Shown here: positions 838-17,791 of the stretch, one piece after another
Position numbering within the stretch: position 1 is the stretch's first letter
How the letters are laid out: every line of letters starts with the position of its first letter
Source of the DNA: a virus
Taxonomy: Duplodnaviria > Heunggongvirae > Uroviricota > Caudoviricetes
IMG/VR virus record: IMGVR_UViG_2698536647_000006
Strand: one strand, 5' to 3'
DNA: 17,791 bases
Notes under the pieces: model-generated
Told to the model about the DNA's origin: nothing
The model's input: only the letters and a program-made list of their open reading frames with translations
The model's database searches: none
Program-made: the position numbers and the translations under genes

Positions 838-1278
838 ATGGTCTTTGCAATGAGCAAATCTAATCTGATCGCGTTCCGCATCCCATCTGAATTGCAGGAT
901 GAGTTTAATCGGTCTGTTCTCGCTTCTGGAGGGGATAAAACCTCCTGGCTTGTTGATGCGATTCGCATGAAGCTGGGACAGATGGAAAAGTCTATTGATT
1001 CACGAATGCTTGGGCTGGTGGAGCGCATGGAAAAAGCCGCAGCATCGCTTATTGCCGGAAAGCCGAACATCCCACCAAAGCCATATAACGAAACGGCAGT
1101 TATAAAGATCATTGCCGATACCATCCGACAGGGATTTGATAATGGGCGTGTGATAGCTGAACGGCTCAATGAAGCAGGCTACCAAACAAAAGCTGGTAAA
1201 GCGTGGGATAAAGACATTTACAGCGCGTGGAAGCGTCAGGGTAACAATATTAAAAGAATCAATACGCTGCTTCAGTAA
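838..1278 (+). CDS. RHH (Arc/CopG-like) DNA-binding protein, 146 aa
   Basis: The N-terminus NLIAFRIPSELQDEFNRSVLASGGDKTSWLVDAIRMKL fits a strand-helix-helix pattern. The C-terminal segment IAERLNEAGYQTKAGKAWDKDIYSAWKRQ resembles the helical DNA-binding module seen in recombinase-type proteins. Start could be the ATG at 850 (MSKSNL...). Confidence 0.55.
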   Translation: MVFAMSKSNLIAFRIPSELQDEFNRSVLASGGDKTSWLVDAIRMKLGQMEKSIDSRMLGLVERMEKAAASLIAGKPNIPPKPYNETAVIKIIADTIRQGFDNGRVIAERLNEAGYQTKAGKAWDKDIYSAWKRQGNNIKRINTLLQ

Positions 1279-1307: not shown

Positions 1308-2330
1308 TCAATCGCTCCCTTTCCGCCCTTCAGCTACAGGGTCGTTGTCGGCGATAACAAAACCTAAGTCCTGAGAGAATCTCTCTCGTGGGAATCCTTT
1401 AGCAGGTAAACCCATTGAATCATATCCACATCCGGGAACATTTGGTTTAGAGTCAATAAGGTCTGCAATTTGCCGAAGCCATGTTGATCCCGGACCAAGT
1501 TGTTTAACTAAGTACCAGATAATACAGATCGCGCTAAAAATCCTCTCGCAACTCTCTGGATGGAGATTAAGTCCGTCAAAGTATTCATTATCCGGTACTG
1601 GAACTCGGGGATGCTTTCTATTCCATATTCTGGAATGGTGAGCGCAACGATTCCTTATGAGATTAAGGCACTTCAACCATTTTGCAAATGTCTGCTTATT
1701 ATCAATGCCAAAACGACGTATAATTTTCCCCTGCATATGACCATTAAGCATCGCATAATATTTAGACATCTGACCAAAATCCCAGGTCTCCACCGCCACC
1801 CAAAATGGAATCTCCTTGCCTTGGCTTCGATGCCATTCAATACAGTCATCTCTGCTTTCGTCTAATTTTACTTTTTGCTTATACACCCAATGCTCGAAGG
1901 CAGATGAGAATTTTGGATTAATGTATTTTGATGACATGTAGGCAAGTGGATCATTGCGACCAACCTCATGCGCGATGACTGAACGAACATGAATCTCTAT
2001 TCTTTCGATAGCATCAATCATCAAAAGACGCAGTTTTTTGTCAAAAAGATATAGATCGTACGTCTTCTCGAAACTGGTACCAGCAAGAAATCGGTCTGTT
2101 CTGTACGAAAGACCTTTATCTGTTGTCGCAATAATTCTTGATGGGTACCAAAAACCTGACAATCGATAATATCCAACCTGCGACAGCTTACGTATCGCAC
2201 GATTTCGATCATTGATAATCATGCCACGTTCAAGTAGCAATCCTAGCAATTCGTGATAGTCCTTATGAGGCTTTGCGGCAATCATAGTGGCGAAACAAAA
2301 GATAATAAAAGGCCCGACCGTGAAACTCAC
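1308..2330 (-). CDS. Abi_2 family abortive-infection protein (AbiD/AbiF-like)
   Basis: Length ~325-340 aa. N-terminal KPHKDYHELLGLLLERGMIINDRNRAIRKLSQVGYYRLSGFWYP and C-terminal LNLIRNRCAHHSRIWN match motifs I associate with lactococcal AbiD/AbiF-type proteins. The true start is probably the internal ATG at 2285 (MIAAKPHK...). Confidence 0.7.
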   Translation of the reverse strand: MSFTVGPFIIFCFATMIAAKPHKDYHELLGLLLERGMIINDRNRAIRKLSQVGYYRLSGFWYPSRIIATTDKGLSYRTDRFLAGTSFEKTYDLYLFDKKLRLLMIDAIERIEIHVRSVIAHEVGRNDPLAYMSSKYINPKFSSAFEHWVYKQKVKLDESRDDCIEWHRSQGKEIPFWVAVETWDFGQMSKYYAMLNGHMQGKIIRRFGIDNKQTFAKWLKCLNLIRNRCAHHSRIWNRKHPRVPVPDNEYFDGLNLHPESCERIFSAICIIWYLVKQLGPGSTWLRQIADLIDSKPNVPGCGYDSMGLPAKGFPRERFSQDLGFVIADNDPVAEGRKGSD

Positions 2331-2478: not shown

Positions 2479-3157
2479 ATTCATATCGTTATCCACTACA
2501 GGCTGTGTCAATAATTTTTACCTATTAATTGGGTAATTTCTACATTTTCCTATGCTGGCTAGTTTCTCTACTGAAAAGTTGGCACTCCTTAATCGCTTTT
2601 CGGTTAATACTATCGGTCTTCATATTGCCAGCAGCATACGCCATCCGATAATTTCGATGCTACGCGCGCGTACTTGTCGCAAAATATCAGGCAAAGGCCA
2701 GATTCAGAACGTCGTGATAACCACCAGCACAACATGAGATGTCATGTAACGCGATTTATCACACCAGATACATGTGATTGGTGTACCCGCATAAAACATT
2801 GTCATAGCGCGTCCTGTGCGCATATACGCCGATAATCAACACATCACCACCACTCTGACTTATGTAGAGAACAGTTTCATGGTATCCCCCGCCATCGTGT
2901 GCGTACTGGTCGGACGCAGTTGCAAAAAATTTTGCAACTGATACCCCTCGCGCGCGTACTTGTCTCGAAATTGGTGTTTTGCTGTGGCAGTGATATCAGA
3001 AAAATCTTCCTGTTTCACATAAAGCGGATATGCGCGTACTGTAACGACCCCATCAACTGGGAGCGGATTTGAAATCCCGACCCAAGCTATGTACCAAATG
3101 CCATGTCTTGGATATATGATGATTGCCATTCTAAACAAAGCTAAAGGGAGGGTTGGT

Positions 3158-3508
3158 GTGAATGCTCAGGCTGTCATCATGGTTTTACTTGGTCTGATTG
3201 TCGCAAAACTATATCCAGACTGGTGGAAAGGGGTATTAGCAACTGTCGCCATCTATTTGCTTTTATCCGTCGTTAAGCGATCGTTCGTTAAGACCGTAAA
3301 TCAAGCAAAACGTTTCTCATTTAAGAATTTAATAAACTATATTACTGGGCTTATTTTTTGCCTTTCAATTTTGATCGCTTCAGCTTTTTTGCCCGTATCA
3401 ATAGCTAATTTTTTTGGCGCACCATATGAGGTAGGTTATCTATTCTCTGTTTTTTGTCTTGTTCTTTCCCTTCTTTACCTATGGATGAGAGCAAAGAACA
3501 AAAATTAG
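3158..3508 (+). CDS. Small integral membrane protein (~116 aa, four predicted TM helices); candidate immunity/partner protein
   Basis: Four hydrophobic stretches of ~15-23 residues. Strong RBS AAGGGAGG (3144-3151) sits 6 nt before the GTG at 3158; the ORF-track start at 3089 has no RBS. Convergent with the 701-aa gene. Confidence 0.5.
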   Translation: MNAQAVIMVLLGLIVAKLYPDWWKGVLATVAIYLLLSVVKRSFVKTVNQAKRFSFKNLINYITGLIFCLSILIASAFLPVSIANFFGAPYEVGYLFSVFCLVLSLLYLWMRAKNKN

Positions 3509-3526: not shown

Positions 3527-5632
3527 TTATTGAGATTCTTTTTGTGATGCCTGTGCGACTCTGGTGAGCGATTGTGTGACCGTACTGATCGCTCTGTCAT
3601 ATGCTGTGCTACCTTTTGGCGTATTTGCCAGACGTAACAAGGCATTTCGTATAACAGGGCTTTCGTATGCCTTCGCTGCTCCGCCTACGACACCAGCAGC
3701 AGGAACAACAAACGCAGCCGTTTTTAGCATCCCCGCTAATACTGCTGCGTTTATGATGCCACCACCAACTAACAATCCATAAAGCTGCTGACCATTTAAG
3801 TTTTGAACGTTCGCTTTTGCCGCGTGTCTTGTATCATTGAGGTATTTAATAACGCCGTCCAGTTCCTTTCCATATACGCCTTTAAAGAAAGTTGCTGATT
3901 GCTTCCTGTTCCGGTGTAACGCATTAATAAACTTCTCAACACTGATATTTCCAGACGGATCAGTCGCCTTATCTACAGCATTCTGAACTATGGCGGCTCG
4001 TGCGTTTTGCCTACCATTGTCATCCAGAAGCCTGTAAAGCTGAGAACGTTCTGATGGGTTTTGGCTAAAAACGAGTTTTGTTACATCCTCAGGCGTGGCC
4101 TTGCCGCTGGCTATTGCCTTTTGAACGCGCGTTCTTCCCATCATGTCATTGAATCTAGCCCATGAGCGATCAACCCTAGACATATTGGTAGCTTCTTCTG
4201 AGCCTAGTTTTTGGGATACTGCTTTTTTCATATCCGCTGTATATGCCTTGTAGACAATATCGCTGGCTTTCTGGAGCGTGTCTTTATCAACAGTCTCGTT
4301 TGAATTCATGAACCGCTTTCGAAGGTCAGTTCTGTTTTCTCTCGCCAGACGCAGGTCATTGGGTCCGCTGGTGATATCGTCTTTAAATTGCTGCAAGACT
4401 TTTACCGCGGCTCTATCCTGAGATTTGCCCGGTCGGCTTAACACGGCAATCTGATTGTCGATAGCTTTTACCGTGTTTGAGAGATCGACAGGGGTATCCC
4501 CCATAGCGTCAATTATGCGGTTATATCGCTTTCCTGCTGCCTCAATGAATTTTTGCTGCCCTTTAGTCGCAGACTCATAAAGCTGTTTATCTGAAATTCC
4601 CCCCAGACCATCGCTAAATGTTCTGACTAAATTTTCTCGTGCTTGTTGTTGATTCAGTCGGTTCTTACCGGTTCCAAAAAAAGGAAGTCTTTCGCCTAAT
4701 GTCTGAGCCTGACTCTGCATAAAGGTTTTATCTTTCAGCATGTCACTGGTCATTAACGGCAGATTTCTTTCCGATGCAAAGTCGACAGCAGCCTTTGCTT
4801 CAGGCGACATATCACCACGAACAGCCCTCGAAACCGCACTCGCTGTATTTTCCAGCCCCTTACCAATACCACCAATGCCAGCAGAAATTACCGTTTGTAA
4901 CGGATCAATATCTTCTCCACCAGCAAGGCTGGTGGCTCCCTGTAGTGCTAAATCTGTAGCTGCTGATTTTCCTATGGCACCAAGCACCGTTCCAGCCCTG
5001 CCCGCTGGTGTAAACGCCAACGCATTAGCAAGAAACGAAGTCAGGTCTTGCGGTGATAAACCCGGCTTGTTTAGGGCATAATCACCTGATGGCAGAGAAA
5101 CGATAGTATTCCCCTTCTCATCCTGCCTTAATGTCGCCCCCATTCCCTGAAGAATCTTTTCCTGAGACGCGTCAGAGCCGAAAAGTTGAGACCATCCAGC
5201 CTTTAAGGCATCCATGCTTAGTGAGTTCAATTCTGGGGCAGAGGCGACATTTTGCAGTCTCTCCATCTCTGGAGTCATTCGGCTTTCGCCTGTTATAGCA
5301 TCGCGCATCGCAGCCCCAAGACTGGCTCCCTGTTCTGCTGAACGCTCAAGCCCCTCTCTTTGCTGAGTAGCTAACTTTGCATACCCTGACGCAAGAGAAT
5401 TATCAGATGATGTATGTTGAATATTTTGAGTTGCTGATTGGGATCGGTCTATTTCATTCGTTGATGGCAGTGGATAGGCAGCATAAAAAGCCTGCTTAGC
5501 CTGCTCTACACTTTCTCCGGCTTGCGGGGCCACGACTTCATTGAAGTATTGCTCCTGAGCCTGCGCTTTTTGTTCTGGTGCTAACGCCTGATACTGTGGA
5601 GAAGCGATAACATCTTTCCATGCTTTAGCCAT
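3527..5632 (-). CDS. Hypothetical 701-aa low-complexity (A/G/Q/S-rich) protein with a C-terminal hydrophobic helical hairpin
   Basis: Long ORF whose ATG (5632-5630) overlaps the upstream stop as TAATG, with GGGG 6 nt upstream. No P-loop or other catalytic motif seen by eye. Hydrophobic segment LYGLLVGGGIINAAVLAGML-KT-AAFVVPAAGVVGGAA lies ~48 residues from the C-terminus. Confidence 0.8.
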   Translation of the reverse strand: MAKAWKDVIASPQYQALAPEQKAQAQEQYFNEVVAPQAGESVEQAKQAFYAAYPLPSTNEIDRSQSATQNIQHTSSDNSLASGYAKLATQQREGLERSAEQGASLGAAMRDAITGESRMTPEMERLQNVASAPELNSLSMDALKAGWSQLFGSDASQEKILQGMGATLRQDEKGNTIVSLPSGDYALNKPGLSPQDLTSFLANALAFTPAGRAGTVLGAIGKSAATDLALQGATSLAGGEDIDPLQTVISAGIGGIGKGLENTASAVSRAVRGDMSPEAKAAVDFASERNLPLMTSDMLKDKTFMQSQAQTLGERLPFFGTGKNRLNQQQARENLVRTFSDGLGGISDKQLYESATKGQQKFIEAAGKRYNRIIDAMGDTPVDLSNTVKAIDNQIAVLSRPGKSQDRAAVKVLQQFKDDITSGPNDLRLARENRTDLRKRFMNSNETVDKDTLQKASDIVYKAYTADMKKAVSQKLGSEEATNMSRVDRSWARFNDMMGRTRVQKAIASGKATPEDVTKLVFSQNPSERSQLYRLLDDNGRQNARAAIVQNAVDKATDPSGNISVEKFINALHRNRKQSATFFKGVYGKELDGVIKYLNDTRHAAKANVQNLNGQQLYGLLVGGGIINAAVLAGMLKTAAFVVPAAGVVGGAAKAYESPVIRNALLRLANTPKGSTAYDRAISTVTQSLTRVAQASQKESQ

Positions 5633-7080
5633 TAATCACCCCATAGTGAAGAAAAGTTACTGCTGGCTGCTGGCTGTGATACCTGTGCAGGTTGAGATTG
5701 CTGCCGCTGAGATTTACCAACATTAACGTTATATTGCTGGTTGTAATTGTCGGTATATTGCTGAATGTCGCGCATTGATTGTTGTAGTGCTTCAGGGCTT
5801 GAGAAATCAGGCTTTGGCATACCCTGAAAATACCTATTGGCCTCTGCTTCGGTGTTGATGCCAGATGCCCCCATATCTCGGGCTGCCGCAATCCCCTGAT
5901 TTTGCATTTTGCCCATGATTCGCTGTGCAGCGTTGTATAGTTTCCTCTCCTCAACACCAGATGCCCGGCTACGAATATCTGCACCAAGAGCAAAAGAACC
6001 TGAAGAACCTGTAATACCTGTCATGAAGCCAAGATCGTCAATTGATGCGCCAGAAATTGCATCAAGATCTTTCTTCATTTCGTAATTCTGCGCATTAGCT
6101 GCCGATGTAGCCGGAGCAGCAATAGAACTTGCGGGGACGCGAATCATATTGCCCTCGTTGTCTATTCCTTCGTAGAACGCATTAGCACCAGCGCCGTGAA
6201 GCTTCCTACCAACCGTTACCGTTCTACCATCTGCCAGTTGCACAACATTCTCCCCGCCAGCAGCAGGACGGCCTCGAACACGAAGATATGTCTTTTGTTG
6301 CTCTGGAGACAGGCTGTTGAAATATTGATATTCTTTAACAGATGCAGGAACAGCACCTCCAGCAGTGCGCAGAGAGTTTTCACGGCTAACAGCAATGCTT
6401 TGCGCCTGTAAACCTTCCCCAGCTTTATTGCTGCGAATCGTCTCTGCCAACTCGCCACGCTCAATATCCCGACCCTCCATTCGATCTTTGATATCGAAGT
6501 ACTTCTCATGACCGAGAGAAAACAGCGCCAGATTACCTGCGAAATGCTGGAAGCCCTGCGGGTCATTAACCTGCATTTCAGCAATAGTTTCTGGAGGGAT
6601 ACCTAAACGACGCATCTCCTGCTCATTATCCATCATGAACCTGCCAAATGCGCCCGGACCAAGCGATGAGGCTACCTGTGCTTTGAGCGCCAGATTGCCA
6701 TAATCATCCCTTTGAGCATCATCGACATAACTCATCCCTTTACGGACTTCCTCAAACTCTTCTGGGAATGCTGTAATAAGATTACGCATCTGCTCCCTGT
6801 CGCCGGACGCATAAGCATCTGCATAACCTTTCTGGAATGCCGCTTTACGCTCCTGCTGTTGCTGCTGCTTATAAATATCAGCAACTCCAGCCAGACCACG
6901 TAACGCGGTCAGACCAACGTTATTTGCACCTGAGCGAGCCAGTTCATTGTTTTCGCGGATCAGACCAAGCGTTGCGTTAATGTCGCTTGCCTTTGGCGCA
7001 TTCTCATTTTGCGTACCGATGCCAGCCAGAAAACCACCAGAATTAATACCCTGTTGCCACGTAGCCATTGATTTACCCAC
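5632..7080 (-). CDS. Hypothetical 482-aa low-complexity (Q/G/A/N-rich) protein, translationally coupled to the 701-aa gene
   Basis: Long ORF with no recognisable enzymatic motif. The track start is GTG at 7080; an alternative ATG at 7068 lies 4 nt after the stop of the 57-codon ORF. Confidence 0.8.
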
Positions 7081-7246
7081 GTCCAGTTAAAGTGTAAGCC
7101 AGCGCCTTATCCATTAATCCCCGAGCAATTTCGTGGATCGTTGGCGCAACTCCTACCTCTGATTTTTTACGCTGCTCCTCCTGAATTTTCTTTATCGCTT
7201 CCATTTGCTTCTCACTTATCAATACTGGCTTTACTGAAATAGCCAT
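7073..7246 (-). CDS. Unannotated 57-aa ORF, RHH-like; first gene of the cargo operon
   Basis: Manual translation: ATG 7246-7244, TAA 7075-7073, giving [66 protein letters not shown] lies 4-5 nt upstream. Below the ORF-track cutoff. Confidence 0.45.
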
Positions 7247-7261
7247 AACGCCCCCTTAGAA

Positions 7262-7277
7262 CTGTATAAAACAACAG
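7262..7277. promoter_or_regulatory. LexA (SOS) box CTGT-N8-ACAG
   Basis: CTGTATAAAACAACAG read directly, with an AT-rich spacer. About 14/20 positions match the E. coli consensus TACTGTATATATATACAGTA, including both half-sites. A perfect TATAAT on the minus strand (7285-7280) lies just upstream, though no good -35 was found. Confidence 0.55.
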
Positions 7278-7341
7278 TTATTATAGTTTCACAAATCGCA
7301 ATATTCATCATCGTAATTGCAAAATATGAAACAAATAGCAC

Positions 7342-7374
7342 AAAAAAATGCCACCGCTCAGTAGCTGGTGGCAT
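7342..7374 (-). terminator. Rho-independent terminator (minus strand) separating the primase/iteron region from the cargo operon
   Basis: Minus strand reads ATGCCACC-AGCTACTGAGC-GGTGGCAT followed by TTTTTT: an 8-bp GC-rich stem plus T6. Confidence 0.6.
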
Positions 7375-7568
7375 CGTTCTGTATGTCAGGTTTTGACAGG
7401 TTTTTTATGGACTCTAAAAACTATATTTATGGTGTCGCATTACTCTTCACGGCAGGCGCTTTCCAGTTCTGCCCTTGCTTCTGGCTCCATTGGTAATTTG
7501 ATTCGCGATCAGCTATGCGGATGGTTTGCTGAACAGGCATAACAACTTCTCAAAGGCTGTTTTTTGAA

Positions 7569-7644
7569 CTACGAAAATTTCGTAGTGCTCACTTTCAAAA
7601 ACGTCACGCCCTTGTACACAGGATTTTACGAAAGTCTCGTAAAA
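7569..7644. promoter_or_regulatory. Two related palindromes: CTACGAAA-A-TTTCGTAG (7569-7585) and TTTTACGA-AAGTC-TCGTAAAA (7624-7644)
   Basis: Both read directly and share inverted TACGA/TCGTA half-sites, centre-to-centre ~57 bp apart. They lie between iteron cluster B and the cargo-operon promoter; candidate operator sites. Confidence 0.35.
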
Positions 7645-7694
7645 CACTCTCTGATGCCAGCCAGGTGTTGTGCGCATCAATTCAGTCACATTGT

Positions 7695-7810
7695 GTTGGT
7701 TCAAAATACCGTGTTGTTGGTTCAGTGTTGGTTCAATAAAAAGAATAAAATCCTTATAAAACAATACTCTTTACAAATTGAACCAACTGAACCAACTGAA
7801 CCAACACCTT
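7695..7810. repeat. Iteron cluster B: three spaced GTTGGTTCA (7695-7703, 7716-7724, 7727-7735) plus three tandem TGAACCAAC (7779-7805)
   Basis: Direct reading; mirror image of cluster A. Lies immediately 3' of the primase-helicase gene, so it is a candidate ori. Confidence 0.7.
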
Positions 7811-7830
7811 TTCTACGCACATGAAGAAGC

Positions 7831-10587
7831 TCATTCTTCAGATGAGTTATAATCTCCAGGCTGGTAATTGAGTACATAAACGTTTATTTGTCGTCCCTGA
7901 ATACGTGGTGATTTTCTTTGGTATCCACGACCGCTGTTTGGTGGGGTTAGCATCCCGGCTTTTTTCAACACTTCAGCAAACTGTTTTGCGTTGAAACCAC
8001 ATGCGATCTCCTTTTCAAATGTGGCCGGGAATGTGTAGAAAATCATTGGGCTTTCGTCATGTTCTCCACGCTGACGGTATCCGGCCAAATCTTTGATGGG
8101 CAAATCTGCCGGGCTGTATGGAAATGGTGCAAAACGGCTAAGCCCATAGGCATTAAGAAATGCCTCCGTTTGTTCAATAATCTGCTGATGTTCTTTGTTA
8201 CCTGTGCCGAACTCGCGCAACCATGCGTTATAGCTGTGCTGTATCGCATCACGGCATGTCTGAGCATCCCAGCCTGTTACAACCTCGCCTAACAGCAATG
8301 CGGCCTCCAGAATGGCAAATCGCGCGGCTACACGGTGAACCTGCTCACCATAATCGGATGGGATCAGACTTCTCCATCTGCTTTCGCAGTCACGAACAGT
8401 TTTAATTGCCTGTTGCTGGTGGTCTGCCAGCCATTTAATCCACTCACGCCCGGCTGCGCCGTGGTGATGCTGGTAAGCGTCTTTCAGTGCGTCTGCGTGC
8501 TGTTTTCCGTTCTGGTAATCGTGAAAGCGTACTGCTTTACTCAACGGAATATTCAGCAGTCGCACCAGTTGCCCGGCTTTGGTTTTTCGCCCGGAAGTAG
8601 CGATAAATGTTTCTAAATCCATTTCTCCAGTGCTGATTGCCACTGTACGCCAGCGTTTTAGATCCCGGTTTCCACCATCTTTAGCGCCTTGCAGTTTCCC
8701 TACACCGTTAAATAACGCATAGGCAGACTGTGAAACACTGACAGGATCAGCGCCCTGACCAACTTCATCAAGCGGTATTAGTCCGTCATTGTGGGCGGCG
8801 GCTTCATTTGCCAGCCCCAGCGCGGTTCCGTACCACGTCAGCCGCAATAAATCAGGGTTGCCGTATAAGCTGCTCGCCACGTTTGCCGTGGTGGTCTTAC
8901 CTGCGCTCGACTGCTCATAGAAATGAATGCCGAACCCGTCAGCGCCCACCAGCCCAATCAATGGCGCTGCCAGTGCTGCGCCGATCCCGGTCATCATTGA
9001 ATAGTTACCAAAGGCCAGACGCGCCACGTTATCACGCCAGCTTTTCGCGCTCCCTGAGACGGTATATCCGGCTGCGGCTGAGCTTCTCCCGCTGAACAGC
9101 ACAGGATTTTCAGGTGTTCCGATGATTTCCCCATCAGGCATGATGTACGCTCCGCATTGCCAGCCAGTGGCATGAGCAACACGCCACAATTCACGAGAGC
9201 CACTGCGTTGTAGCCAGTCTGCCAGTATTGCTCTGAGGCTGCTTTTGGTCGTGACATTTACCCCACCAGCTTTAAGTGTGCGCCATCCTTCACGTTCACC
9301 AATATCAGCCAGTGGAATAGCAGCGGTTGTCGGCGTTTCAGAACCAAACGACAGCCAGCGAAGAATGAGATACTGGTCTTTATCGTCTCTGCCAGTACCG
9401 ATAACGCTTAACGGAGAACATAACCAGCTTTCGTTATTGATGATTTCTCCACTCTGGCTGTCAGCTCTCGGAGATACCCAATAAATACCATCCTCGCGGC
9501 TTTCTATTCTTGGTTTCAGTGGGTCGGTATCCATAACCTTAAAATCGCTTCCCTCAATGGTCTGTGGCTGCTGTTTCACGCCATTACCCTGTGGTTGGTA
9601 CATTGACTTATTGAACGCTTCTGTGGCGCATTTAATGCCGTGTTTTTGGTGGTAATCATTCCAGTCTGCTTTGTGATCTGTCGGGGGTAATGCCACCCAT
9701 CCAGAAACAGATAAAGCTGCTTTTTCTGCTGCTATTCTCCCCGTGTTTTGTCTTCCTTCGCTGTGGTCGTTATCCGCAGCAATGATGATTTGTGCTGAAG
9801 GAAATTTATCCCGCAGTACCTGGGCGACATATAACAGGTTCCCGGCATCAATCGCCGCCACTGTCAGCGATTCTGGACGAATTAAATGGGCAGATAATGC
9901 CGTTGCCAGCCCTTCTGCGATTAAGATGCTCTGTGTTGTTTCTGGTGCGTTTATGGCGTGATATGCCCCTCGCTTTGCTGAACCTGTCAGGAGTCTTTTT
10001 TCACCATGTGAGGTAATAGTCTGTGCTGCTGTGACTGCGCCGGATTTATCCACCAGCGCCAGCAACAGAGATCCATCGGGCAACACTGGGAATGTAAAAT
10101 CACCTACCCCTTTCGCAACCAGATAATCAGATTTGCCGTTTACAGCCTTTCTGCGCATGTCATCAAACTGACGGGAAAACGTATCCCGTCTTTGTTGTTC
10201 GTCCTTCTCTGCCCTTTTCAGGCGCTCCTGTTCGCGTCGCTGGCGCTCGGTTTCCAGTTGTTCCCGTTTCTGGCTGGTGGCTTCTGGTGTTTCCGTTGTC
10301 CGGTAATCAATACCCAGAACATCAGCGGCAAGCAGCGCCGCCTCTGTTGTGTCGCAGTTATTTACGCGTTTAATTAAATCCAGCCCATCACCAGCGCCGC
10401 ACTGATTACAGATGAAGCTACCGCGCCCGTTGTCATCGAACCGGAATCGATCTTTGCCCCCACATGCAGGGCAGGGAGCATGACGGCGCGGAGAGTCAGG
10501 GACATTTATGTTCAGGCAGCCCAGCACATGAGGCCAGTTGTTTTCAGACGCACTGATAACCTGACGGATAAGATCAATGTTTCGCAT
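7831..10587 (-). CDS. Primase-helicase (zinc-ribbon primase, TOPRIM, P-loop NTPase), 918 aa
   Basis: Cys-rich N-terminus CPACGG...CNQCG; TOPRIM-like IAEGLATA...AADNDH; Walker A SSAGKTT and Walker B-like IPLDEVGQ. GGGGG RBS 5 nt upstream of the ATG at 10587. Architecture resembles satellite-phage replicases such as P4 alpha. Confidence 0.85.
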   Translation of the reverse strand: MRNIDLIRQVISASENNWPHVLGCLNINVPDSPRRHAPCPACGGKDRFRFDDNGRGSFICNQCGAGDGLDLIKRVNNCDTTEAALLAADVLGIDYRTTETPEATSQKREQLETERQRREQERLKRAEKDEQQRRDTFSRQFDDMRRKAVNGKSDYLVAKGVGDFTFPVLPDGSLLLALVDKSGAVTAAQTITSHGEKRLLTGSAKRGAYHAINAPETTQSILIAEGLATALSAHLIRPESLTVAAIDAGNLLYVAQVLRDKFPSAQIIIAADNDHSEGRQNTGRIAAEKAALSVSGWVALPPTDHKADWNDYHQKHGIKCATEAFNKSMYQPQGNGVKQQPQTIEGSDFKVMDTDPLKPRIESREDGIYWVSPRADSQSGEIINNESWLCSPLSVIGTGRDDKDQYLILRWLSFGSETPTTAAIPLADIGEREGWRTLKAGGVNVTTKSSLRAILADWLQRSGSRELWRVAHATGWQCGAYIMPDGEIIGTPENPVLFSGRSSAAAGYTVSGSAKSWRDNVARLAFGNYSMMTGIGAALAAPLIGLVGADGFGIHFYEQSSAGKTTTANVASSLYGNPDLLRLTWYGTALGLANEAAAHNDGLIPLDEVGQGADPVSVSQSAYALFNGVGKLQGAKDGGNRDLKRWRTVAISTGEMDLETFIATSGRKTKAGQLVRLLNIPLSKAVRFHDYQNGKQHADALKDAYQHHHGAAGREWIKWLADHQQQAIKTVRDCESRWRSLIPSDYGEQVHRVAARFAILEAALLLGEVVTGWDAQTCRDAIQHSYNAWLREFGTGNKEHQQIIEQTEAFLNAYGLSRFAPFPYSPADLPIKDLAGYRQRGEHDESPMIFYTFPATFEKEIACGFNAKQFAEVLKKAGMLTPPNSGRGYQRKSPRIQGRQINVYVLNYQPGDYNSSEE

Positions 10588-12078: not shown

Positions 12079-12927
12079 GTGCCACCTCCATGCGGATACG
12101 ACCAGCAAAAAAGCAGATGTGATCGCGCACCAGAGAACGGCGAGCATCGCGTTCAGACTCGGCAGCAATATGATGAATTTTGGCGGTAATTGTCGGGCAA
12201 TCGCGGCGAACTGCGGCGATAATCCAGATAAATTGCGTTTTTTGGGTAGGGGTAGTAGCCAGCATGTGGCAGCCTCCTTCAGATAGCAGGTTACGCTACC
12301 ACCGGAAACGCCAATTTCGCTGGTGGTAGCCCAGACAGGGTTGGCGTAACCGGCTCTGAAGGATACCGGCGCTTCCGAAGAAGCCCCCGCCTGAGCCACC
12401 ATTGATTGACAAAGGCGCTGGATTATACACCAACGCCCAAAAAATGGGTGAGTCAGACCTACGACATAAAAAAAGACGCTCGGCGCGTCATATGTCGCCT
12501 TCAGAATTTTCAGGACGCCAATCCCGGCACCCGTTTTATGAGGTGCCTTATAACCATAAACCGTGTTGCCGCATAACGGCAAGCTCTTTTTTATGGACTC
12601 CGAAAACTCACTATTGGAAGAACCAGAAGCACAGTACATCGCGCTCATTTCGTTAACGTCACGCGCGTGGACGAAGGTTTTTGTGGAGTCACTACACGAG
12701 CAGAGAAAGCCATCTACGACCAGAAATTCTCTGGCATAGCCGCTGACCTTCTCAACGCTAACACCATCGACCGTAATTTCTGACATAGTTAAGGCATCCG
12801 CTCCTACCACCAGAAAATGATAAACTTTGCTTGTATCTGCTGTATTAATGTCTGACTTTGCTGTCATATTGCTGGATTTTGGCGACATACCAGCCAGTGA
12901 AAATATCTTCTTCTGGGCGGTTAGCAT
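11860..12927 (-). CDS. 355-codon ORF, probably composite; the 5' ~220 codons may be a real gene
   Basis: ATG at 12927 with GGAGG 7 nt upstream, and no in-frame stop until 11860. The middle segment overlaps a strongly RBS-fronted ORF in another frame and reads as low-quality protein; hairpins lie inside it. Confidence 0.3.
12071..12265 (-). CDS. Hypothetical small protein (64 aa)
   Basis: ATG at 12265 with a perfect AAGGAGG 7 nt upstream. It overlaps the long 355-codon ORF in a different frame. Confidence 0.4.
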   Translation of the reverse strand: MLATTPTQKTQFIWIIAAVRRDCPTITAKIHHIAAESERDARRSLVRDHICFFAGRIRMEVAHD

Positions 12928-13941: not shown

Positions 13942-14373
13942 TTAGGCGGCGTTAAACGCGTCCGGGTAGAGTTTCAGAATGTCGGCAATTTCCTGCTGAG
14001 AAAGTCCGTTGTGATCATTTATGTTCGCAAGATGGTTAATATGAGTGATCACTTTCAGAACATCACCACGGCAGGAGAAACGGTAGCGAAGGTGTGTTCC
14101 GATACCATCAGGATTCTTTTCGTCGATACGCTCCAGAGTGATTCCAAGCTGGCGTTCTAACTCTGTTGCATAGTTACGACCAGAAGACAGACGGCAGTAG
14201 CGAAGAATGTCATTTTCTGTCCATCCCTCTATACCAGTACGCAGCATATAGACTCTGGCACGATGCTTTTTCGGTGTGCGCTTTGGTGCTTGAAGGGATT
14301 TTGTAAGGGGCGTAACATCAGATACACGAATATCTGAATTAGCCGCCTGTAATGGGCGGTTTTTCTTTTCCAT
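13942..14373 (-). CDS. Hypothetical protein (143 aa)
   Basis: ORF immediately downstream of alpA with a 1-nt TGATG stop/start overlap; no family recognised. Confidence 0.55.
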   Translation of the reverse strand: MEKKNRPLQAANSDIRVSDVTPLTKSLQAPKRTPKKHRARVYMLRTGIEGWTENDILRYCRLSSGRNYATELERQLGITLERIDEKNPDGIGTHLRYRFSCRGDVLKVITHINHLANINDHNGLSQQEIADILKLYPDAFNAA

Positions 14374-14576
14374 CAGGCCATCTCGTCTCTAGATTCTAAT
14401 ATACACTTCTCAATCCATTCATCTATTTCAGACTCAACAAAAGCAATTGCCCGACTTCCAATTTTTACCTGTTTAGGGAACCTCCCCTGACTAATAAGAC
14501 GATAAATCCATGCTTTGCTATAACCAGTTCGCCTTTGAACTTCAGAGAGACGAATTAATGAATTGTAATTAGCCAT
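14373..14576 (-). CDS. alpA: AlpA-family phage regulatory protein (small HTH activator/excisionase-like)
   Basis: 67 aa; LIRLSEVQRRTGYSKAWIYRLISQGRFPKQVKIGSRAIAFVESEIDEWI matches the AlpA/Vis-type HTH pattern. Sits next to the integrase, as usual in tRNA islands. Confidence 0.85.
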   Translation of the reverse strand: MANYNSLIRLSEVQRRTGYSKAWIYRLISQGRFPKQVKIGSRAIAFVESEIDEWIEKCILESRDEMA

Positions 14577-14967: not shown

Positions 14968-16182
14968 TCATGCGTGTTTTTCAAACACCATATGCACCAC
15001 ATTTCCGCCATGCTCGAGAGAATCCATATAGTCGGCATACCATTGAAGCATCTCCCGCCTTCCATCCAGATATTGCGCATGGTTGTATGTGCCACGAATT
15101 GAGTTCTTATCAACGTGAGCGAGCTGCGTTTCTATCCACGCGGTGTTATAGCCCTGCTCATGCAAAATCGTACTCATAGTGTGCCGGAACCCATGACCAG
15201 TTACACGTCCAGCGTAGCCAATGCGCTTAAACACTTGGTTTATGCTGGCCTCGCTCATTGTTTTCCTTGGATCATTGCGCCCGGGAAACATAAGAGGGTA
15301 ATTGCCTGTTATTTCTCTAATCTTCCCAATAAGCGAAAGAGCCTGCTCAGACAATGGCACAATATGAGGCCGCCGCATTTTCATACGTGAAGCGGGTATC
15401 TCCCAGATAGCCTTGTTGAAATCAATTTCATCCCATAATGCGCCACGTAGTTCGCCAGTCCGCAAGCCGGTGATAATCAGTAGACGAGCCGCCATAACAA
15501 CCAATGCGCTTCCTGAGTAACTGGACAATGCCTTGAAAAAATCAGGTAATTCTTTGGCTGTAAGGAAAGGGTAATGATTAGATTCATGGCCTTGCATCGC
15601 GCTAGTAAGGTCTGGTGCAGGGTTATACTCTGCGCGACCAGTGACTATTGCATAGCGGAAAACTTCCCCGCACCGCTGCCTCACTTTTTTGGCTTTTTCT
15701 GTAGCACCGCGCCCCTCGATGCGCCGCAGCACATTCAGAAGTTCAAGTGGTTTGATTTCGGCGATTGGTTTTTTGCCAATGTAAGGGAACACATCTTTGT
15801 TGAAGGCTTCGAGGATGTCTGAAGCATAACCAGCAGACCATTTTTTTAATTTGCTGCTGTGCCACTCAAGGGCAATATCTTTGAAGGTGTTGTTTAACTG
15901 CGTTTCCCGGGCAATCTTTTCCTCTCGTTTCGCTTCCATCGGATCGATACCACCAGCGATACCTCTTTTCGCATCTTCACGTTTTGCCCGAGCATCGGCT
16001 AGAGTAACCTCAGGATACACACCTAGTGCCAATAGCTTCTCTTTACCAGCTACACGATATTTAAGTCGCCAGTATTTACCTCCATTAGGTTTTACCAAGA
16101 GATACAAACCGCCACCATCGGCCAGCTTGTAAGCCTTCTCTTTTGGCTTGGCTGTGTCTATTTGACGGGCATTGAGTTTCAC
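14968..16182 (-). CDS. int: P4-type tyrosine integrase
   Basis: 404 aa; N-terminal arm-binding pattern LADGGGLYLLVKPNGGKYWRLKYR and C-terminal catalytic region HGFRHT...LAH...Y. Starts at GTG 16182 with GGAGG upstream. Adjacent to the tRNA 3' end. Confidence 0.9.
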   Translation of the reverse strand: MKLNARQIDTAKPKEKAYKLADGGGLYLLVKPNGGKYWRLKYRVAGKEKLLALGVYPEVTLADARAKREDAKRGIAGGIDPMEAKREEKIARETQLNNTFKDIALEWHSSKLKKWSAGYASDILEAFNKDVFPYIGKKPIAEIKPLELLNVLRRIEGRGATEKAKKVRQRCGEVFRYAIVTGRAEYNPAPDLTSAMQGHESNHYPFLTAKELPDFFKALSSYSGSALVVMAARLLIITGLRTGELRGALWDEIDFNKAIWEIPASRMKMRRPHIVPLSEQALSLIGKIREITGNYPLMFPGRNDPRKTMSEASINQVFKRIGYAGRVTGHGFRHTMSTILHEQGYNTAWIETQLAHVDKNSIRGTYNHAQYLDGRREMLQWYADYMDSLEHGGNVVHMVFEKHA

Positions 16183-16347: not shown

Positions 16348-16423
16348 TGGTGCCGATAATAGGAGTCGAACCTACGACCTTCGCATTACGAATGCGCTGC
16401 TCTACCAACTGAGCTATATCGGC
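16348..16423 (-). tRNA. thrW: tRNA-Thr (anticodon CGU), intact with 3' CCA; island attachment site
   Basis: Minus strand reads GCCGATATAGCTCAGTTGGTAGAGCAGCGCATTCGTAATGCGAAGGTCGTAGGTTCGACTCCTATTATCGGCACCA, 76 nt with anticodon-loop TTCGTAA. Matches E. coli thrW as I recall it, and lies next to proA as in E. coli. Confidence 0.9.
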
Positions 16424-16537: not shown

Positions 16538-17791
16538 TTACGCACGAATGGTGTAATCACCAATGCCGATCCACTTGTAAGTGGTCAGTGCTTCCAGCCC
16601 CATTGGGCCACGCGCGTGGAGTTTTTGTGTGCTTACCGCGACTTCCGCACCCAGTCCAAACTGGCCGCCGTCGGTAAAACGCGTAGAGGCGTTAACGTAA
16701 ACAGCGGAAGAATCCACTTCGTTAACAAAACGCTGGGCGTTGCGCATATCGCGGGTCAGGATCGCATCGGAGTGTTGTGTGCCGTGTTCACGAATATGGG
16801 CGATGGCATCGTCAAGATCGCTGACGATTTTGACGTTCAAATCTAATGACAGAAACTCATCGTCATACTCTTCCGCTTTAACCGCCACCACCTTCGCGGG
16901 GCCTGTCTGCAACTGCGCCAGCGCAGCTGCATCTGCGTGTAATGTCACGCCGCTTTCCGCCATTTGTTTGCTTAATGCGGGCAGGAAGCTATCTGCTATG
17001 TTTTTATTTACCAGCAACGTTTCAACCGTATTACATGTGCTCGGACGCTGGGTTTTCGCGTTGACGATTACTTTCAGGGCTTCAGCGATCTCTGCACTTT
17101 CATCAACGTAAATATGGCATACGCCTATACCACCAGTGATCACCGGGATTGTCGACTGTTCACGGCACAGTTTATGCAAACCAGCGCCACCACGCGGGAT
17201 CAGCATGTCGATGTATTTATCCATACGCAGCATTTCACTGACCAGCGCACGGTCAGGATTATCAATCGCCTGCACGGCACCCGCCGGTAAGCAACAGGAT
17301 TTCAGGGCGTCCTGAATCACCGCCACCGTTGCCGCGTTAGTGCGACAGGTTTCTTTGCCACCACGCAGGATCACCGCATTACCGGTTTTCAGGCACAGCG
17401 AAGCGACATCAACCGTCACGTTCGGGCGCGCTTCATAAATCACGCCAATAACCCCCAGCGGTACGCGACGACGCTCAAGACGCAGGCCGCTGTCCAGTAT
17501 GCCGCCATCGATTACCTGCCCCACCGGATCGGCGAGGTTGCACACCTGACGTACATCGTCGGCAATGCCTTTCAGCCGTGCGGGCGTCAGTGCCAGACGG
17601 TCAAGCATCGCTTCGCTAAGGCCATTGGCTCGCGCGTCAGCAACATCCTGGGCGTTAGCGTTGAGGATGATTTCGCTTTGTGCTTCCAGTTCATCGGCGA
17701 TTTTTTCCAGCACGCGATTTTTTTCGCGGCTGGAGAGTTGCGCTAATTTATACGAGGCTTGCTTCGCGGCAATGCCCATTTGTTCCAGCAT
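16538..17791 (-). CDS. proA: Gamma-glutamyl phosphate reductase
   Basis: 417-aa ORF beginning [20 protein letters not shown], recognised as enterobacterial ProA; its start codon falls at the last three bases of the window. Confidence 0.95.

Follow-up and report, generated by a model that had tools for sequence, protein, structure and literature searches.

Related satellites and RHH proteins

The element described here resembles EcCIMP1, a PICI of E. coli MP1 whose integration site is tRNA-Thr, between proA and yagU, and which the P22-like phage Kapi1 mobilises (PMC11773190). A superinfection-immunity phenotype has been reported for EcCIMP1, and the larger genes that follow a small gene in this element were treated as packaging candidates (PMC11773190). 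In PICIs, the segment that follows pri is known as an accessory region (PMC11364771). The EcCIMP1 paper makes no mention of the small gene itself or of a LexA box (PMC11773190), and EcCIMP1 is the only studied member of these satellites.

A packaging operon controlled by LexA is known in the SaPIs (Ubeda et al. 2007, Mol Microbiol 65:41, as cited in PMC6092414). SaPI operon I and the operon examined here are both satellite operons positioned after the replication module, with packaging or virion functions behind a LexA box that would couple them to induction of the helper by the SOS response. The SaPIs are, however, Gram-positive elements with unrelated genes in which no RHH first gene has been described, and LexA control in the present family appears to be restricted to some lineages.

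Small RHH proteins are familiar repressors of mobile elements, for example Arc and Mnt of P22 immI, CopG of pMV158, omega of pSM19035 and AmrZ. The small protein that is the subject of this work has no detectable sequence homology to these repressors. The loop between its helices A and B (S-x-x-G-x-A-P-T) is longer than the canonical G-x-S/T/N turn of RHH repressors, and its N-terminal strand is unusually hydrophobic when compared with those of the small RHH repressors. The RHH antitoxins ParD, MazE4/6/7, TacA and PrpA share with it the predicted fold of the DNA-binding domain and the position as first gene. The N-terminal RHH domain of TraM from the F-like plasmid pED208 (PDB 3omy/3on0) is also among the closest known systems, but no significant sequence similarity was observed between TraM and the small protein (hhalign P 0.03; no Pfam Tra_M match). 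TraM further differs in having a C-terminal domain for tetramerisation and TraD binding, and in belonging to a conjugative plasmid rather than to a phage satellite.

Gene content of the element

The window, which is the whole stretch of 17,791 nucleotides that was analysed, contains proA (16538-17791), a tRNA gene (16351-16423), a tyrosine integrase (14968-16182) and a small HTH gene (14373-14576). The other genes of the backbone are an AntA/AntB antirepressor, an Icd-like gene, a TOPRIM-DUF927 primase (7831-10587) and PerC. An integrase adjacent to a tRNA gene, an AlpA-type regulator, a primase and a downstream accessory region were all observed, together with the lack of a full structural or lysis set that is expected of a PICI. 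This gene content identifies the element as a phage satellite (PICI) of the EcCIMP1 type, integrated at tRNA-Thr beside proA, and its layout is collinear with that of EcCIMP1.

The accessory region contains two genes for P22-type virion proteins on the minus strand. The first encodes a gp20-type ejection protein (5632-7068; Pfam Inj_translocase, 3e-82; phrog_917) which has 64-67% identity to gene 20 of P22-like phages. The second encodes a gp16-type ejection (DNA transfer) protein (3527-5632; phrog_770, 1.7e-163; 'injection protein' in PGAP), with a 1-nt overlap between its start and the gp20 stop. EcCIMP1 shares with this element the tRNA-Thr/proA site and the backbone of int, AlpA-type HTH, antirepressor, Icd-like gene, TOPRIM-DUF927 primase and PerC. 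It also has an orthologue of the small gene (WP_001018524.1, 53 aa), and in MP1 this orthologue precedes P22-type DNA-transfer genes, being located between the primase and genes for DUF2824, gp7-like, gp20-like and gp16-like proteins. EcCIMP1 carries the full set of DUF2824, gp7-like, gp20-like and transglycosylase-bearing gp16-like proteins, whereas only gp20 and gp16 are present in the window, and the two small proteins differ in their C-terminal tails.

Sequence and conservation of the small gene

The small gene occupies positions 7246 to 7073 on the minus strand and comprises 57 codons followed by a TAA stop. The first-pass annotation had described it as an ORF with an ATG start and an AGGGGG ribosome-binding site which heads the operon, and all of these features were found. 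The Shine-Dalgarno sequence AAGGGGG is located at 7257-7251, 4 nt 5' of the ATG. The reported spacing of four nucleotides to the next gene was also observed, since the TAA (7075-7073) is followed by 'atca' and then by the ATG of the gp20-type gene at 7068, which is the same start that was chosen by PGAP. The description of the gene as unannotated holds only in relation to the 60-aa ORF track because RefSeq/PGAP lists the product as hypothetical protein WP_001018522.1. A hypothetical protein was likewise listed beneath the match in all the rows that we sampled from a search of E. coli genomes. We found no literature on the accession or on RHH proteins in PICIs.

The length of 57 codons alone is not beyond chance as there are 113 ORFs of at least 40 aa in the window. 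The gene is judged to be real because it is conserved across loci. Its frame was observed to be open and intact in all fifteen genus-level loci, which were obtained from a scan of one genome per species and represent at least ten enterobacterial genera. The loci are found in Escherichia, Leclercia, Klebsiella, Raoultella, Chimaeribacter, Pantoea, Lonsdalea, Rahnella, Erwinia, Serratia and Pectobacterium. In 120 pairwise comparisons, the mean pS was 0.76, with synonymous sites saturated, against a pN of 0.28, and the pairwise differences at codon positions 1, 2 and 3 were 0.32, 0.20 and 0.62 respectively. Furthermore, a near-invariant block of 18 residues is encoded by many different synonymous codons, and a strong Shine-Dalgarno sequence is kept in all the aligned loci as CAGGAGGTG or CAGGGGGTG. 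The small ORF is a real gene under purifying selection. Moreover, the situation that would have spoken against it, a broken frame with the downstream genes conserved, was observed in reverse: the small gene is kept while the downstream genes change.

We also considered a leader peptide or a non-coding element. Strong purifying selection on the amino-acid sequence ruled out both. A scan of positions 6900-7900 against Rfam gave no RNA family.

The family, although real, is narrow. Among 5.8 billion proteins searched there were 45 relatives, all of them from Enterobacterales wherever the source names the organism, and among these a Pfam domain was matched only once, as a stray match in a partial sequence of 84 aa. 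A profile search of 1.84 billion cluster representatives, conducted without a word index, yielded only 55. No real homologue of the small protein was found by tblastn in 50,697 phage records, which places the gene with the satellite and not with the captured cargo.

Predicted fold of the small protein

The strand-helix-helix layout that had been proposed from the sequence is borne out by the AF2 model. The model, which was built with 42 sequences including distant members of the family, has a pLDDT of 89.3 and a pTM of 0.69. Residues 1-11 are predicted to be extended (pLDDT 84) and are followed by helices at residues 12-28 and 37-54 of 57, and the monomer thus has the beta-alpha-alpha topology of the RHH superfamily. 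DSSP assigned no strand in the model. This is expected because the RHH ribbon forms only in the dimer and the model is a monomer. The model was observed to be similar in three dimensions to solved RHH domains, and the structural matches include MazE4, TacA1, ParD2, PrpA, MazE7, omega (two entries), AmrZ, CopA(SO) and NikR of H. pylori. An earlier and shallower AF2 model (pLDDT 74) gave weak structural matches only.

Sequence searches assigned the protein to none of the curated families of RHH proteins (Pfam RHH_1, Arc, CopG-type and others). Scans of the 57-aa protein against Pfam and PHROG gave no family. When 34 family members were compared with Pfam at E<=10, no RHH family was returned and the sole match was to TerS in one member, P0088. 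P0088 appears as a 'fusion' of the small protein to TerS within a decayed element, and this fusion is probably a frameshift. Searches of PDB sequences with two family profiles (A2 and A4) returned chance matches only. The hhalign scores against 14 RHH sequences and TraM were no better than those of eight non-RHH controls. Taken on the model, the RHH fold is well supported, and the small proteins would be a new, undescribed sequence family within this fold which has no Pfam, NCBIfam or PHROG model.

Conservation is not evenly distributed along the protein. Helix B is nearly invariant across the family. The N-terminal strand, VKPVLIS, is more hydrophobic than the typical DNA-reading strands of RHH proteins, and K6 is the sole conserved basic residue in it. 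The tails that follow the conserved core are short and variable (for example YTLTGRG, SLASEGA and GCM).

Organisation of the promoter

An alignment of the 170 nt upstream of the small gene from 16 loci revealed a conserved order of elements: a GC hairpin and T run (seen in many of the loci), a distal 15-bp palindrome (O1), a proximal 15-bp palindrome (O2), TATAAT, CTGTAT... and the Shine-Dalgarno sequence. In the window, the first of these is an intrinsic terminator on the minus strand (7342-7374), identified from the sequence and with a terminator scan, where ATGCCACC...GGTGGCAT is followed by T7. GC hairpins with T runs are comparably placed 5' of the promoter in several other loci. On its sequence and position, the terminator is predicted to insulate the operon promoter from transcription upstream.

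O1 (7317-7331) has the sequence TTTCA-N5-TGCAA and is centred 30 bp 5' of O2 (7287-7301), which reads TTGCG-N5-TGAAA on the minus strand and is located between the -35 and -10 elements. The half-sites of the palindromes are conserved across the loci whereas the 5-nt spacers are variable. O1 is the only exact match to TTKCA-N5-TGMAA in the window, and O2 has one mismatch to this motif. There are 24 matches to the motif in 216 kb of loci, 20 of them at two fixed sites no more than 110 nt 5' of the small ORF, but since these very homologues had been used to derive the motif, its enrichment among them is not independent evidence.

The -10 hexamer TATAAT (7280-7285, minus strand) was identified from the alignment, where it reaches the 80% consensus. 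The -35 element is weak, with ATGAAT matching at three of six positions, and a scan for the sigma-70 consensus called no full promoter because of this poor -35. The poor -35 could mean that the promoter depends on an activator, for example AlpA. Activation of the MerR type, acting on the spacer at O2, was also considered and was rejected as no better -35 was seen by eye at a spacing of 19-20 bp.

The arrangement of the palindromes is best accounted for, in our view, by a protein that controls its own operon. An alternative is that the small protein is, instead of or besides a simple repressor, a TraM-like accessory protein for DNA processing which would bind specific sites on satellite DNA and aid replication of the satellite or recognition of its DNA for packaging by the helper. 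We regard this alternative as rather unlikely since the conserved candidate binding sites are found only in the promoter of the small gene itself and TTKCA-N5-TGMAA is not enriched elsewhere in the element. In addition, the distance between the primase/ori and the small gene varies from 0.6 to 2.4 kb among the loci, and the cargo points to helpers with very different terminases. The small protein also lacks the C-terminal domain of TraM for tetramerisation and for binding the coupling protein.

The LexA box

A LexA box, AACTGTTGTTTTATACAGTT, is located at 7260-7279 on the minus strand, where it abuts the -10 element and covers the expected transcription start. The small gene had been placed directly downstream of this box and was indeed found there: the 16-bp core CTGT-N8-ACAG (7277-7262) overlaps the promoter, ends 15 nt 5' of the ATG and is the single match in the window, against 0.17 expected by chance. 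With a score of 21.1 bits, the box ranks first among the sites of its locus. The weight matrix was built from 29 E. coli LexA boxes, and these known boxes score between 12.9 and 27.2 bits with a median of 20.2.

A box within this range was observed in six of 17 loci, namely the E. coli/Escherichia loci, L008, L009 and L016. In ten other loci the site is of the CTG-N9-CAG form (CTGTATAAATAT-CAGG-type), which is one base short and scores 3-7 bits. The remaining locus (L015) has no site of this type and its best score is 9.1 bits. LexA control is apparently toggled by an indel of 1 bp. Because the box scores in only six of the 17 loci, SOS control is read from these sites as a lineage-specific overlay on a conserved cassette.

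SOS-induced effectors include the LexA-controlled Tum protein of phage 186 and the Gifsy antirepressors. They provide a model in which the small protein would act in trans, as an antirepressor or inducer of the helper prophage, and not as a regulator of its own operon. The LexA box, which would directly control the small gene in E. coli, is consistent with such a role, as is the finding that the protein is small and specific to satellites, with no homologue in the phage records searched. We nevertheless consider the role very unlikely. The protein is conserved in the 11 loci where the box is absent, its predicted RHH fold points to binding of DNA and not of a repressor, and autoregulation is the better explanation for the conserved palindromes of its promoter. 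Moreover, the types of helper implied by the cargo are too diverse for a single protein target.

As regards the module as a whole, LexA control is not one of its conserved properties.

Genes behind the small gene

The genes that follow the small gene were observed to differ widely among the loci. L002 carries the full P22 set of DUF2824, gp7, gp20 and gp16, and P22 gp14 is also among the P22-type virion genes found in this position. A T7 gp14-like protein together with large core proteins bearing an SLT domain is encoded in L003, and core proteins of the SLT-domain or head-protein type are found in L004, L005 and L015. In six loci (L007, L008, L011, L013, L014 and L016) a protein of 108 aa is followed by a tape-measure protein. 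L006 has a tape-measure or transglycosylase-like protein with a TerS-like protein, and L010 has a baseplate hub with TerS. In L023 the small gene persists though most of the cargo is deleted. Even the more distant members of the family, at 29-36% identity and adjoining a D5_N/Pox_D5 primase, are the first genes of P22_gp7/gp16 or TMP/Dit operons. Together, the small gene and its promoter make up a conserved cassette, and the genes behind it are swapped between satellites.

The position of the exchange can be seen among the E. coli genomes. A search of 5426 genomes gave 255 records that match at 90-95% identity, and in all the sampled rows below ~97% identity the match does not begin until query position 26. 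These partial matches place the junction of the cargo swap in the last ~8 codons of the ORF, and this would account for the variable C-terminal tails.

The exchange of cargo bears directly on the suggestion, made in the first-pass annotation, that the gene is antitoxin-like. In a type II TA pair, an RHH antitoxin would neutralise the protein encoded by the adjacent gene, and the pair would be autoregulated. The predicted fold of the DNA-binding domain and the first-gene position are shared with such antitoxins, but neither a conserved adjacent toxin gene nor a C-terminal toxin-neutralising extension was found. The next gene in the window encodes a P22 gp20-type ejection protein, and elsewhere unrelated virion genes (for a baseplate hub or T7-type core proteins, or TMP operons) take its place beside a small gene that is retained, also in L023, where it outlasts most of the cargo. 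Helix B at residues 37-54 of 57 in the model leaves only three residues and thus no toxin-binding domain. As the partner changes and the C-terminal tail is absent, the antitoxin reading is effectively excluded.

The nature of the cargo also raises the possibility that the small protein is a chaperone or an assembly adaptor for the virion proteins encoded downstream. The gene order suggests that it is always co-transcribed with proteins that are loaded into virions, and in the window it is located 4 nt 5' of gp20, a spacing compatible with translational coupling. A role of this kind is highly improbable when the nearly invariant helix B is set against the unrelated families of downstream proteins. 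In the TMP loci a further small ORF lies between the small gene and the tape-measure gene, and the predicted fold is typical of DNA-binding domains.

Proposed role of the small protein

Judged by gene order, members of the family are the conserved first genes of the virion-protein/packaging operons in EcCIMP1-like PICIs of Enterobacterales. From its modelled fold and the layout of its promoter, we propose that the small protein is probably an RHH autoregulator of this operon. The protein would bind the candidate operators O1 and O2 as dimers of RHH dimers. The operators are separated by 30 bp and the half-sites within each by one helical turn, an arrangement that would suit two RHH dimers in successive major grooves. 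Binding would repress the promoter of the small gene itself and thereby provide negative feedback on the operon. The location of O2 between the -35 and -10 elements suits repression, and the sign of the regulation (repressor or activator) is a guess made from this operator position.

The LexA box across the -10 element and the transcription start would add SOS control in E. coli and in a few Pantoea and Lonsdalea lineages. Induction of the helper prophage by DNA damage would then also free the operon, which here carries gp20 and gp16. In addition, the spacing of 4 nt between the stop of the small gene and the start of gp20 is compatible with translational coupling. There is nothing unusual in the fold or in the logic, in which a small RHH autorepressor is the first gene of a mobile-element operon. 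The small gene encodes a putative regulator of familiar fold, and it is useful as a marker and as a handle.

Recombination hotspot and distribution

As a marker, the RHH gene and its promoter indicate the start of a recombination hotspot in at least ten genera and with two types of primase. This hotspot is where PICI-type satellites retain ejection, tape-measure and TerS genes that are specific to their helpers. As a handle, the insulated promoter, the candidate autorepressor and, in E. coli, the SOS box offer direct experimental access to the packaging and superinfection immunity of EcCIMP1.

A broader and rather unlikely reading is that the RHH gene and promoter form a 'socket' for a swappable DNA-delivery module matched to the helper (P22 gp7/20/16, T7-type core or tape-measure), with which a whole family of enterobacterial satellites would supply delivery proteins of their own and where the RHH protein would be the switch that times production to the induction of the helper. 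By analogy with TraM, the RHH protein might also mark the satellite DNA. If the 'socket' reading is true, satellite particles would carry conduits encoded by the satellite itself. The escape of P22 from SieA exclusion maps to gp16 and gp20 (PMC10461980), which are the two P22-type proteins carried in the window, and therefore the module could let the satellite enter helper lysogens. The module could instead underlie the superinfection immunity of EcCIMP1. A membrane protein of 139 aa (3089-3508) was considered as a possible SieA analogue and gave no match in phages by tblastn.

The small gene and its promoter were found in 501 of 5426 complete E. coli genomes. Since the family is without a Pfam, NCBIfam or PHROG model, a family model could improve annotation in ~9% of complete E. 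coli genomes.

Cargo junction within the small ORF

The boundary between the conserved satellite backbone and the variable cargo was located within the last ~8 codons of the small ORF, at its 3' end (window 7073-7097), and the E. coli copies of this ORF consequently carry at least three alternative C-terminal tails. Helper-type-specific DNA-delivery genes were found downstream of the small ORF across genera, both in the window (3527-7068) and in the homologous satellite loci L002-L016 and L020-L022, and in some loci this cargo is accompanied by TerS. The cargo types observed in this position include P22 gp14/7/20/16, T7 gp14 together with SLT core proteins, a baseplate hub, and tape-measure proteins whose genes are preceded by a further small ORF. 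A literature search for helper-matched DNA-delivery cargo as a general property of a PICI family found no paper.

LexA box ahead of the small ORF

The position of the LexA box is occupied by CTG-N10-CAG in the window (7260-7279) but by CTG-N9-CAG in the homologous loci L004-L007 and L010-L014. Judged from these aligned sites, a 1-bp indel appears to switch the LexA box ahead of the small ORF on or off. The CTGTAT half-site is kept even in loci where LexA is predicted to be unable to bind. The small-ORF promoter of L014 is itself without a LexA box, and elsewhere in that locus a LexA-like site was observed that is very strong, scoring 25.9 bits with a matrix made from E. coli LexA boxes.

Unusual and decayed copies

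An identical copy of the small ORF is present in L023 (NZ_CP148430.1), a circular record of 12,152 bp filed as a 'plasmid', which has the same satellite backbone as the window and a deletion extending from within gp20 to approximately window position 1499. This record is probably an excised or episomal form of the satellite, and similar records of 17-23 kb exist in Raoultella and Klebsiella. The only disrupted copy of the small ORF that we saw is the family member P0088 of loci L018 and L019, where the reading frame continues into TerS-like sequence (189 aa), probably through a frameshift. The element in these two loci is decayed, with a truncated integrase and a remnant of the primase.

Putative replication origin

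Twelve perfect copies of the iteron TGAACCAAC were found in the window and are evenly distributed between two clusters at 615-735 and 7695-7805, with six copies in each. When one mismatch was allowed, the search of the window gave 17 copies against 4.2 expected. One of them is situated a short distance downstream of the primase gene, PerC adjoins the other, and together they flank the ~7-kb accessory region on both sides. The arrangement is reminiscent of P4 with its ori and crr, and the two clusters probably form the origin of the satellite.

Accessory genes and immunity-like RNAs

A predicted membrane protein of 139 aa is encoded on the plus strand (3089-3508), convergent to gp16, in the place where P22 has sieA; no Pfam family was assigned to it, and a tblastn search against phages gave no match. 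An Abi_2 abortive-infection-type gene (1308-2330, minus strand; Pfam 2e-52) adjoins a 146-aa ORF (838-1278, plus strand), and L006 and L010 have this pair too, at the distal end of their accessory regions. Two Rfam matches on the minus strand, to the C4 antisense RNA (79.9 bits) and the Hfq-binding sRNA isrK (67.8 bits), were assigned to 12319-12406 and 12469-12546. These RNAs are located near an Icd-like gene and downstream of an AntA/AntB antirepressor gene, an arrangement within the satellite that resembles immI of P1 and P7.
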